Source: Pseudogymnoascus verrucosus (lineage: Eukaryota). Taken from it: a DNA stretch of 64,000 bases. The stretch lies in NCBI GenBank assembly GCA_001662655.1, contig KV460221.1; one strand, written 5' to 3'. Positions 19,932 through 22,318 of the stretch are shown piece after piece. Under the pieces are notes generated by a model that searched no databases, was not told the DNA's origin, and saw only the letters and a program-made list of their open reading frames with translations. The stretch's first letter is position 1; every line of letters begins with the position of its first letter. The translations under genes and the position numbers were made by a program.

Positions 19932-20816
19932 TCTCGAATGGTAGAATGCGATGATGTGGATGGAGTCGGGAAGTTTTTCAGCGGGAGTATATTATACGGC
20001 CATGCCACGGGAGGCAAGGAGGGGTGGAGGCATTGTATGTAATGTTAGAAAGGGGTATTGTAGGTTATTATACAAGGAAAATATAATATTCGTACTATTC
20101 GGCTTAAATCTATGTCCTAAAGAATGTTCAATTGTAGTGATTCCTCGCTTTGAAGAGTATATGTTTGTCGAATACATTTAATAAATAAAAATAAAAATAT
20201 ACTAAATCAGAAAATATTATTTCTCACTGCCATCAACTAAAATCAATTGCCCGCAAAGCCAGGCATACAGATATGCCCCGTTGAATATTTATATAAAACC
20301 AACGATATCTTTTAGAGTGATATTCTGATGTTTTCTCATTCCTCGGTGTACCTTCCCCAGAAATGACGCCACAAATTTGGAGCCTTCAACCGAAGAGCCG
20401 ACAGCATATTGAGCTCAACGCCATTTTATTTACCAGATTGTAATATACAAATATATAGAGGCAGTATTATAATTGTTTTTAGAAGTAAATAAAATAATAA
20501 TGTATATCCAAGTGAATCAAGGTCGCTCATGTCATGACCGCGGCTCCCCACATAGTACTCCGTCGAAGCGTAGATTCGTTTCGCTTAGTGTGAAGTCTTG
20601 GCGCCCACAAAGCCAATGCGCCATCTCCCTTGTCAACGACACGACGACGACGGTCAAATTATTGAATTATTGTGGAAACAGCGACTTGTACGTGTCCCTT
20701 CCAACGCCCATTGATCGGATTTTCGACATTACGACTTCCGATACGACTTCCAAGTGCTAACAGGTTGCCCTACAGTCATCCTTCTCCCTCAGTCCACCCC
20801 CAACACAACCGCCATC

Positions 20817-21632
20817 ATGGATATGGACAAGCTGAAGAAGATGCAGCAGTCGGTGCGCATTGGTGAGTTGAACTTCTGACCCCGAGATGAGCCGAATAGC
20901 AAGCTTTGAAGAGCGTGGAAGGCAGTTCATCCTTCACCGACACCCCTGCTGACATATCTTTGTAGGGTAAGCAGATTTCCAAACCTCGACCCATCTATCT
21001 CCGAAAGACGAACCAGGCACAAATGATGGAGAGGAGGCATCAGGGACAGACGAAATTGATGGATTGAGGCTGACAATTGTGGGATTATAGCGGAAAGGGT
21101 ACCCCGAGACGTAAGGTCAAGTCCAAGCCAAAGAACTTTGGTGTCGACGACAAGAAGCTCCAGACCGCTCTTAAGAAGATCAACGTGCAGCCCATCCAGG
21201 CCATCGAGGAGGTCAACATGTTCAAGGCCGACGGAAACGTTATCCACTTCGCTGCACCAAAGGGTATGTACATCCAACTTTCTACCCGACAGCCTCTTCA
21301 AGGCCACATATCCGACGGAAATACATTATGCGGCAACATACAAGGCGGTGTATTGAAATACGAGCTACGAGGCTAACAATATACAAATAGTGCACGCCGC
21401 TGTCCCATCCAACACCTTCGCCATCTACGGTAACGGTGAGGACAAGGAGCTTACCGAGCTCGTACCCGGCATCCTGAACCAGCTGGGCCCCGACTCCCTG
21501 GCCTCGCTCCGCAAGCTGGCCGAGAGCTACCAGTCGATGCAGAAGAAGGAGGGTGAGGAGAAGGAGGACGATGACGACATCCCAGACTTGGTTGCCGGCG
21601 AGACTTTCGACGAGAAGGTCGATGTCGAGTAA
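20817..21632 (+). CDS. EGD1: Nascent polypeptide-associated complex subunit beta (BTF3); exons 20817-20862, 20966 (1 nt), 21091-21263, 21391-21632
   Basis: Spliced product [26 protein letters not shown]...[27 protein letters not shown]...[38 protein letters not shown] probable 5'UTR intron lies at 20688-20763. Confidence 0.96.
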
Positions 21633-22318
21633 GCGCTTAAAAAAAGTTAAAAGCCGAGCAGGATGGATGGGACGCTACTGTGGCGCCAGTACGCAAGGAT
21701 GGCTGCTGAGGTGATGCGATAGGCTGTTTTGGGCGCACATGCGTGGATGGATTTGTGTCTCAGCCTGGCAGAACAGATCTTGGGGGGTCATTCGAAGGGC
21801 GAAGTAGGCTCTTGATGACTTGCTTGTACAAAACTCTTCGAATACAGCCACAGTCAATCTTCCAATGTCCAATCTGCTTGAATATGCGTTGATACGCCAG
21901 GTGAGAATAATGTGGTGTGTTTATGTGGGAGTCACAATGCTAAACTGCTGGCGTTGAACTATAATTCGACCGGCGGCACGCTACTCTATGAGCGCCGTTT
22001 CCATATCGACTGTGATAACTGAACCCCCAATCCAAACGAATGAGGTATGACGAGGTAAGGCAGTCCAAATCAAAATCTCATAGTCTATTTAATTATGTCC
22101 TTTCCCTTTCCCCTTCCCTTTCCAATTCCCATACCTGCATATTCATCTTCTACACTTTCGGTCACATCTATCAACATTAAAGTCTCAAAACGCGGTTTAT
22201 CTTCTCACCCCCATCACTGCACATTCTCACTTCTATCGGCTTCATTCTTGGTCATATATTTAAACTTGGTTTTTGAAATTTAGGGCCAGTCCTACTGGTC
22301 GCTTTCCCACCCACCAAT

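Follow-up and report, generated by a model that had tools for sequence, protein, structure and literature searches.

The window, i.e., the whole stretch of 64,000 nucleotides of Pseudogymnoascus verrucosus contig KV460221.1 that was analysed, contains on its plus strand a gene for the beta subunit of NAC (NAC-beta, EGD1/BTF3-type). The identification is based on the match of the peptide encoded by exon 3 to Pfam PF01849 (E 5.3e-15, 55.5 bits, cut-off 21.3); in the clean orthologue P0008, the full 57-position profile of this family is matched. The exon 3 peptide (57 aa) is 100% identical to NAC subunit beta of Pseudogymnoascus destructans and Pseudogymnoascus sp. WSF 3629, and a taxonomy look-up places the genus in the class Leotiomycetes. 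The protein encoded from exon 1 starts with MDMD in the window and with MDME in the P. destructans models. A basic N-terminal motif of the RRK type, which we take to be the ribosome-binding element of NAC-beta, is present in the predicted protein.

All parts of the gene lie on the plus strand. The end of the 5′UTR and coding exon 1 (20776–20862) include the ATG at 20817 and end with CGC ATT G in phase 1; RNA contigs from three sequencing runs (X1, X2 and X3) match this piece with zero differences. Intron 1 (20863–20965, 103 nt) has the donor GTGAGT (20863–20868), the branch element GCTGAC (20948–20953) and the acceptor TGTAG. It is followed by an exon of one nucleotide, G20966, the middle base of a glycine codon GGC, and by intron 2 (20967–21090, 124 nt) with the donor GTAAGC (20967–20972), the branch element GCTGAC (21069–21074) and the acceptor TATAG. 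The one-base exon is flanked by a canonical acceptor and a canonical donor (TGTAG-G-GTAAGC), and the element GCTGAC is present upstream of both acceptors. Exon 3 (21091–21263) encodes the first part of the NAC domain and starts in phase 2 with C GGA AAG GGT ACC CCG. Intron 3 (21264–21390, 127 nt), which reads GTATGT...GCTAAC (21372–21377)...AATAG, is supported by joints in X1, X2 and X3, and the coding part of exon 4 (21391–21632) ends with the stop TAA at 21630–21632, with the RNA contigs extending the 3′UTR to at least 21750. The search for snoRNA or other RNA families within the introns gave 0 Rfam matches at E up to 1 over positions 20500–21800.

Joining 20817–20862, 20966, 21091–21263 and 21391–21632 gives an open frame of 153 aa, in which the junction of exon 1, the single G and exon 3 reads ATT GGC GGA. 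When 20862 is joined directly to 21091 without G20966, the frame is shifted and a stop TGA is reached at 21475–21477. An initial annotation, made from the sequence alone, had placed a one-base exon here and considered it necessary for the NAC-beta frame; its coordinates were exact throughout, and the joins with and without the G agree with the need for this base. All single introns that start with GT, GC or AT, end with AG or AC and keep the frame were also enumerated. The sole half-plausible candidate, which combined the donor GTTGAA at 20867 with the acceptor at 21090 and would add one residue to the protein (RIGDGKG, the reading of the public P. australis model P0004), was rejected, as the corresponding skip of 224 nt was absent from the RNA contigs.

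Twenty-four sequencing runs were listed, and the contigs of four of them (X1, X2, X3 and X15) were aligned to positions 20700–21750. The aligned material consisted of Logan assembled contigs rather than raw reads, so that rare isoforms may have been dropped. Runs X1, X2 and X3 stem from three separate studies; the record of X3 gives metatranscriptomic RNA-Seq, X1 and X2 were assumed to be RNA and were treated as such because their contigs are spliced, and the kind of X15 is unrecorded. One contig in each of X1, X2 and X3 (3/3) joins exon 1 to exon 3 at 20862>21090, skipping 227 nt with an ambiguity of 1 nt. A skip of 228 nt, expected from direct splicing, or of 224 nt was found in none of the contigs of these three runs. 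The skip of 227 nt instead of 228 nt means that the mRNA holds one extra base, i.e., that it is the inclusion form ATT GGC GGA, and at the contig level inclusion of the one-base exon looks constitutive. The joint of intron 3 (21262>21390, 127 nt, GT..AG with the cut moved by +1) is present in the same contig in X1 and X3 and in a second contig in X2. Splicing intermediates were not found among the contigs of the three runs, from which rare forms could escape.

The aligned pieces of the X2 and X3 contigs begin at 20776, and their loose ends match positions 20658–20687 of the window at 29 of 30 letters when compared by eye, the mismatch being T20670, read as C. This match shows a further intron in the 5′UTR, 88 nt in length (20688–20775, GTACGT...GCTAAC (20756–20761)...CTACAG), and the single mismatch shows that the X2 and X3 RNA samples came from a strain slightly different from that of the window. 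The contig pieces of X1, X2 and X3 over 21218–21262 also carry one other letter each, which may reflect a difference of strain common to all three or result from how the joint was placed.

The RNA alone does not separate a one-base exon from a single non-canonical intron of 227 nt, because the aligner is blind to the former: an exon of one base is outside what it considers, and it puts the extra G at 21090 or at 20863, with the ends GT..TA. A 227-nt intron removed in one reaction would have the ends GT..TA (20863–21089) or TG..AG (20864–21090), and the AG-G-GT inside it would be irrelevant. The alignment of the contigs fits exactly these two placements, and such an intron would also agree with the lack of intermediates among them. 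We know of no spliceosomal class with either pair of ends, the established pairs being GT-AG, GC-AG and AT-AC. The evidence bearing most directly on the choice comes from the relatives of this gene.

A single scan in which the exon 3 peptide was compared with metagenome contigs gave 80 loci. In 78 of these 80, exon 1 ends in phase 1, exon 3 starts in phase 2 and the core YAG-G-GTRNG lies between them; exon 1 of the relatives ends with R-I-G followed by GT, and their exon 3 starts one base ahead of GGN AAR GGN. At L002, the core is present and exon 1 lies off the contig; L001 and L002 are independent assemblies with 98% identity in exon 3. The contig of the first exception, L034, breaks off 128 nt upstream of exon 3 and gives no information on the core. 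The second, L063, has no coding intron (R-I-G-G-K-G is contiguous); whether the gene itself is intron-less or the contig is cDNA-like, it can be used as a length marker.

Both exceptions have further peculiarities. Upstream of the ATG, L063 (1–1136) contains an intron-like stretch GTACGT...CTGAC...ATATAG; its lineage may have lost all three coding introns, or the contig may be derived from an mRNA with a retained UTR intron. In L034 (1–1109), intron 3 is absent (APK-VHASV is contiguous) and the acceptor region of intron 2 is retained, which reflects either that its lineage has lost intron 3 or that the contig comes from a partly spliced RNA.

The comparison was based on 64 distinct intervals between exon 1 and exon 3, the window included, which are mutually related and are not independent trials. 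All 64 have C or T at position -3, the acceptor AG of intron 1, the exon base G and the donor GT of intron 2. Position +3 of this donor is A in 60 and G in 4 of them, and position +5 is G in 60/64. Intron 1 is 63–475 nt long (median 98) and intron 2 is 81–157 nt long (median 133); the motif CTRAY is found 8–50 nt from the acceptor in 60/64 cases for intron 1 and in 63/64 for intron 2. Positions outside the core showed no preference across these intervals, and the third base of the glycine codon, which is the first base of exon 3, is T in 25, A in 21 and C in 18, the free variation expected of a synonymous site. Likewise, in the alignment of 12 Leotiomycete-like sequences, nothing is kept except the branch elements of both introns, the AG-G-GTA.G core and the AG at the end. 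The motif AGGGTR occurs 66 times in 15,353 nt of the intervals, and a motif of this type is found at a splice-compatible place in all 64 of them, while it occurs twice in the chance control, the intron 3 sequences of 55 related loci (5,506 nt in total). The AG-G-GT layout is therefore more than chance.

The main argument for two introns is that a single non-canonical intron needs no internal signals. Such an intron would leave unexplained the internal YAG-G-GTRNG that is invariant in 64/64 distinct sequences, the extra branch element upstream of the internal AG in 60/64 and the drift of the rest of the interval, and we give it very little credence. The genomic layout, the additional mRNA base and the fact that both sets of splice signals are conserved are matters of observation, and the preferred reading, that the glycine codon of NAC-beta is split around the exonic G20966 by two canonical GT-AG introns, each complete in itself and 103 and 124 nt long, respectively, is in our estimate correct with a probability of about 0.9.

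Another explanation would be an error of assembly or sequencing, the true genome having an additional G at the edge of an exon and one ordinary intron. It can be invoked as a general possibility, and there are G runs at both junctions. Run X15 has the character of DNA, as all 30 bins, also those in introns, have depth, and its contigs at 20835–20971 and 20950–21087 cross both junctions with 0 differences from the window over 20835–21087, although X15 may be the sample behind the assembly of the window and so is perhaps not independent. Because of this identity, an extra or missing G is very unlikely, and the same phase-1/phase-2 layout in L001, L002 and 76 further loci also speaks against an error, which we regard as next to negligible. 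X15 carries two versions of most of the gene, as contigs with 0 and with 8–9 differences cover the same stretches, which suggests two strains or two close species in one sample.

Several of the checks named in the initial annotation have an outcome at the level of contigs. In the comparison of inclusion with skipping, the contigs of all three RNA-type runs (3/3) contain the inclusion form only; other splice sites that restore the frame, which would have spoken against the one-base exon, are used by none of the X1, X2 and X3 contigs; an extra G at an exon boundary is missing from the X15 genomic contigs, which are identical to the window; and the YAG-G-GTRAG core expected to be conserved across loci is found in 78 of 80 relatives.

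In filamentous fungi, short introns are recognised as units (intron definition), so the length of an exon is not limiting, unlike under exon definition. The two introns would be excised in two separate reactions that leave the lone G between exon 1 and exon 3, and the resulting ATT-GGC-GGA would encode the conserved N-terminus of NAC-beta. Positions -3 and -2 of the intron 2 donor are formed by the acceptor AG of intron 1 itself, which makes simultaneous occupation of the two sites unlikely and sequential removal probable. A co-transcriptional order from 5′ to 3′ would be favoured, roughly 60:40, since the polymerase completes intron 1 on passing 20966 and still has some 100 nt to transcribe before the branch site of intron 2 exists; the reverse order is chemically possible too. 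After excision of intron 1, the exon end ...TTGG would abut GTAAGC, and the second step would amount to a recursive splice that retains one base. Probably, the layout is held because any change of AG-G-GT would break the frame of an abundant housekeeping protein.

It had also been proposed that skipping of the exon acts as a regulated switch, in which direct splicing from 20863 to 21090 gives a frameshifted, unproductive mRNA and thereby tunes the dosage of NAC-beta. Such skipping needs only the pairing of the exon 1 donor with the second branch site, and the frameshift would inactivate the mRNA just ahead of the RRK motif. The inclusion form is the sole form among the contigs (3/3 RNA-type runs), from which a rare isoform could escape, and no contig with a 228-nt skip was found in the three runs. 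The skipped form would meet its premature stop (TGA 21475–21477) inside the last exon (from 21391 on), 84 nt downstream of the final junction, a place where junction-dependent decay is not to be expected. The need to keep the frame explains the conservation of the core equally well. In favour of a switch, the plant gene VPS55 has isoforms with and without its one-base exon (PMC8831610); for NAC-beta we nevertheless consider the switch unlikely, and this part of the initial annotation was not upheld. A related idea, to which we attach a similarly low probability, is that the exon is no frozen accident and acts as a conserved kinetic gate: enforced splicing in two recursive-like steps would control how much NAC-beta is made, and occasional skipping would yield a dead mRNA. 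If true, it would explain why both introns are kept across the sampled classes of Pezizomycotina just before the codons of the ribosome-binding motif.

The loci were placed solely by the nearest named protein, using tblastn against 53 organism-named proteins. L004 and L008 are nearest to Hyaloscypha variabilis (98.5–99.3%), presumably a member of Leotiomycetes. Wilcoxina mikolae (95.8%) is the nearest named match of L015, L017 and L018 and Choiromyces venosus (93.7%) that of L029, L030 and L032, both belonging to Pezizomycetes, while L016, L026 and L078 are nearest to Ophiobolus disseminans of Dothideomycetes (99.3%), and L069 and L070 to Pyrenophora teres (97.8%). Weaker nearest matches, of about 86–87%, were obtained with Letharia and Microsporum, which we assign to Lecanoromycetes and Eurotiomycetes, respectively. 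Judged by these nearest named relatives, three or more classes of Pezizomycotina appear to share the one-base exon layout. Within this group the layout is an old one and, since Pezizomycetes are an early branch, it probably dates to an early ancestor of Pezizomycotina. The protein P0045, labelled Quercus suber, is a NAC-beta of fungal type, 86% identical to exon 3 and nearest to L039 (89.8%); it looks like fungal DNA in a plant assembly.

One-base exons had been described in the initial annotation as extremely rare. Their rarity stands, and the wording was too strong, as cases are known from plants, Fusarium and Coprinopsis. Such an exon is reported in APC11 of Arabidopsis (PMC4674806, Guo and Liu 2015), in APC11 and VPS55 across land plants, where it is found in no reference annotation (PMC8831610, Yu et al. 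2022), and in 20 CYP621A orthologues of Fusarium, with an AGGGT core in a glycine codon (PMC12940212, Nelson and Syed 2026). The last source presents CYP621A as the first case in a fungal gene; the long-read annotation of Coprinopsis from 2025 already lists one-base exons in 13 genes (PMC12230235).

The Fusarium exon resembles that of NAC-beta in its phase-1 end and phase-2 start, the AGGGT core, the position of the G in the middle of a conserved glycine codon, the retention among orthologues, the transcript support and the failure of annotation to detect it. It differs in that CYP621A is a rarely expressed P450 of one genus, whereas NAC-beta is a housekeeping chaperone with the layout in at least three classes of Pezizomycotina by nearest named relatives. 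The plant exons are likewise constitutive, flanked by two introns, spread over a very wide clade and missing from reference annotations, and aligners mis-map them unless the junction is supplied. They belong to another kingdom and other genes, and that of APC11 was tested with reporter constructs, while the NAC-beta exon is known from sequence data.

Recursive splicing of long animal introns uses zero-nucleotide ratchet points (AG-GT), at which no base is kept. As in NAC-beta, an acceptor adjoins a donor there, and removal of the upstream part sets the exon against a new donor. The ratchet points retain no base and are located in very long introns; in NAC-beta, one G stands between AG and GT and is kept in the mRNA, so that the site is not a zero-nucleotide recursive site, and both introns are short. 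A stwintron consists of an external intron whose donor, branch site or acceptor is split by an internal one and works only once the latter has been excised (PMC5587772, Fekete et al. 2017). The stwintrons of Pezizomycotina share with NAC-beta two introns in contact, consecutive reactions and positions one nucleotide apart. The kinship with stwintrons put forward in the initial annotation holds as a loose likeness; neither intron of NAC-beta interrupts a splice signal of the other, both being complete in the primary transcript, with donors, branch elements and acceptors intact and non-overlapping in the genomic sequence.

A full-text literature search, with most subscription journals outside its scope, found no paper on a one-base exon in NAC-beta. 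The exon is real and of a kind already known; what sets it apart is the gene that hosts it, its breadth among fungi and how many annotations it leads astray. This gene, a highly expressed housekeeping gene that looks single-copy, has the exon in many ascomycete moulds and lichen-type fungi, which shows that so extreme a layout can last over a very wide clade. The locus offers a convenient natural substrate for studying how the spliceosome deals with a donor that lies one base from an acceptor, and in which order it uses them.

Among the best 120 protein matches, 34 have the correct junction R[IVT]G-GKGTPRRK. Of the organism-named models in this set, 7/53 are correct (Monilinia fructicola, Choiromyces, Wilcoxina, Terfezia, Ophiobolus, Letharia and Pyronema) and 46/53 are wrong at the junction. 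Four types of error were recognised, of the sort with which gene predictors typically mend a broken frame: a shifted donor that adds one residue (RIGD-, RIGT- or RIGE-GKG), translated pieces of introns, as in both P. destructans models, an exon 1 in another frame that is directly spliced (...GVGAHC-GKG), and truncation or fusion of the NAC-beta model. The 27 clean proteins without an organism name, mostly on contigs of about 1 kb, may, at a guess, be transcript assemblies. The fault in annotation is systematic, and one rule, which looks for an exon ending in phase 1, a next exon starting in phase 2 and YAG-G-GTRNG in between, could mend it. Two Pseudogymnoascus models, P0005 and P0007 (324 and 443 aa, respectively), skip part of exon 1 and run into an unrelated downstream frame, and they are probably fused gene models.
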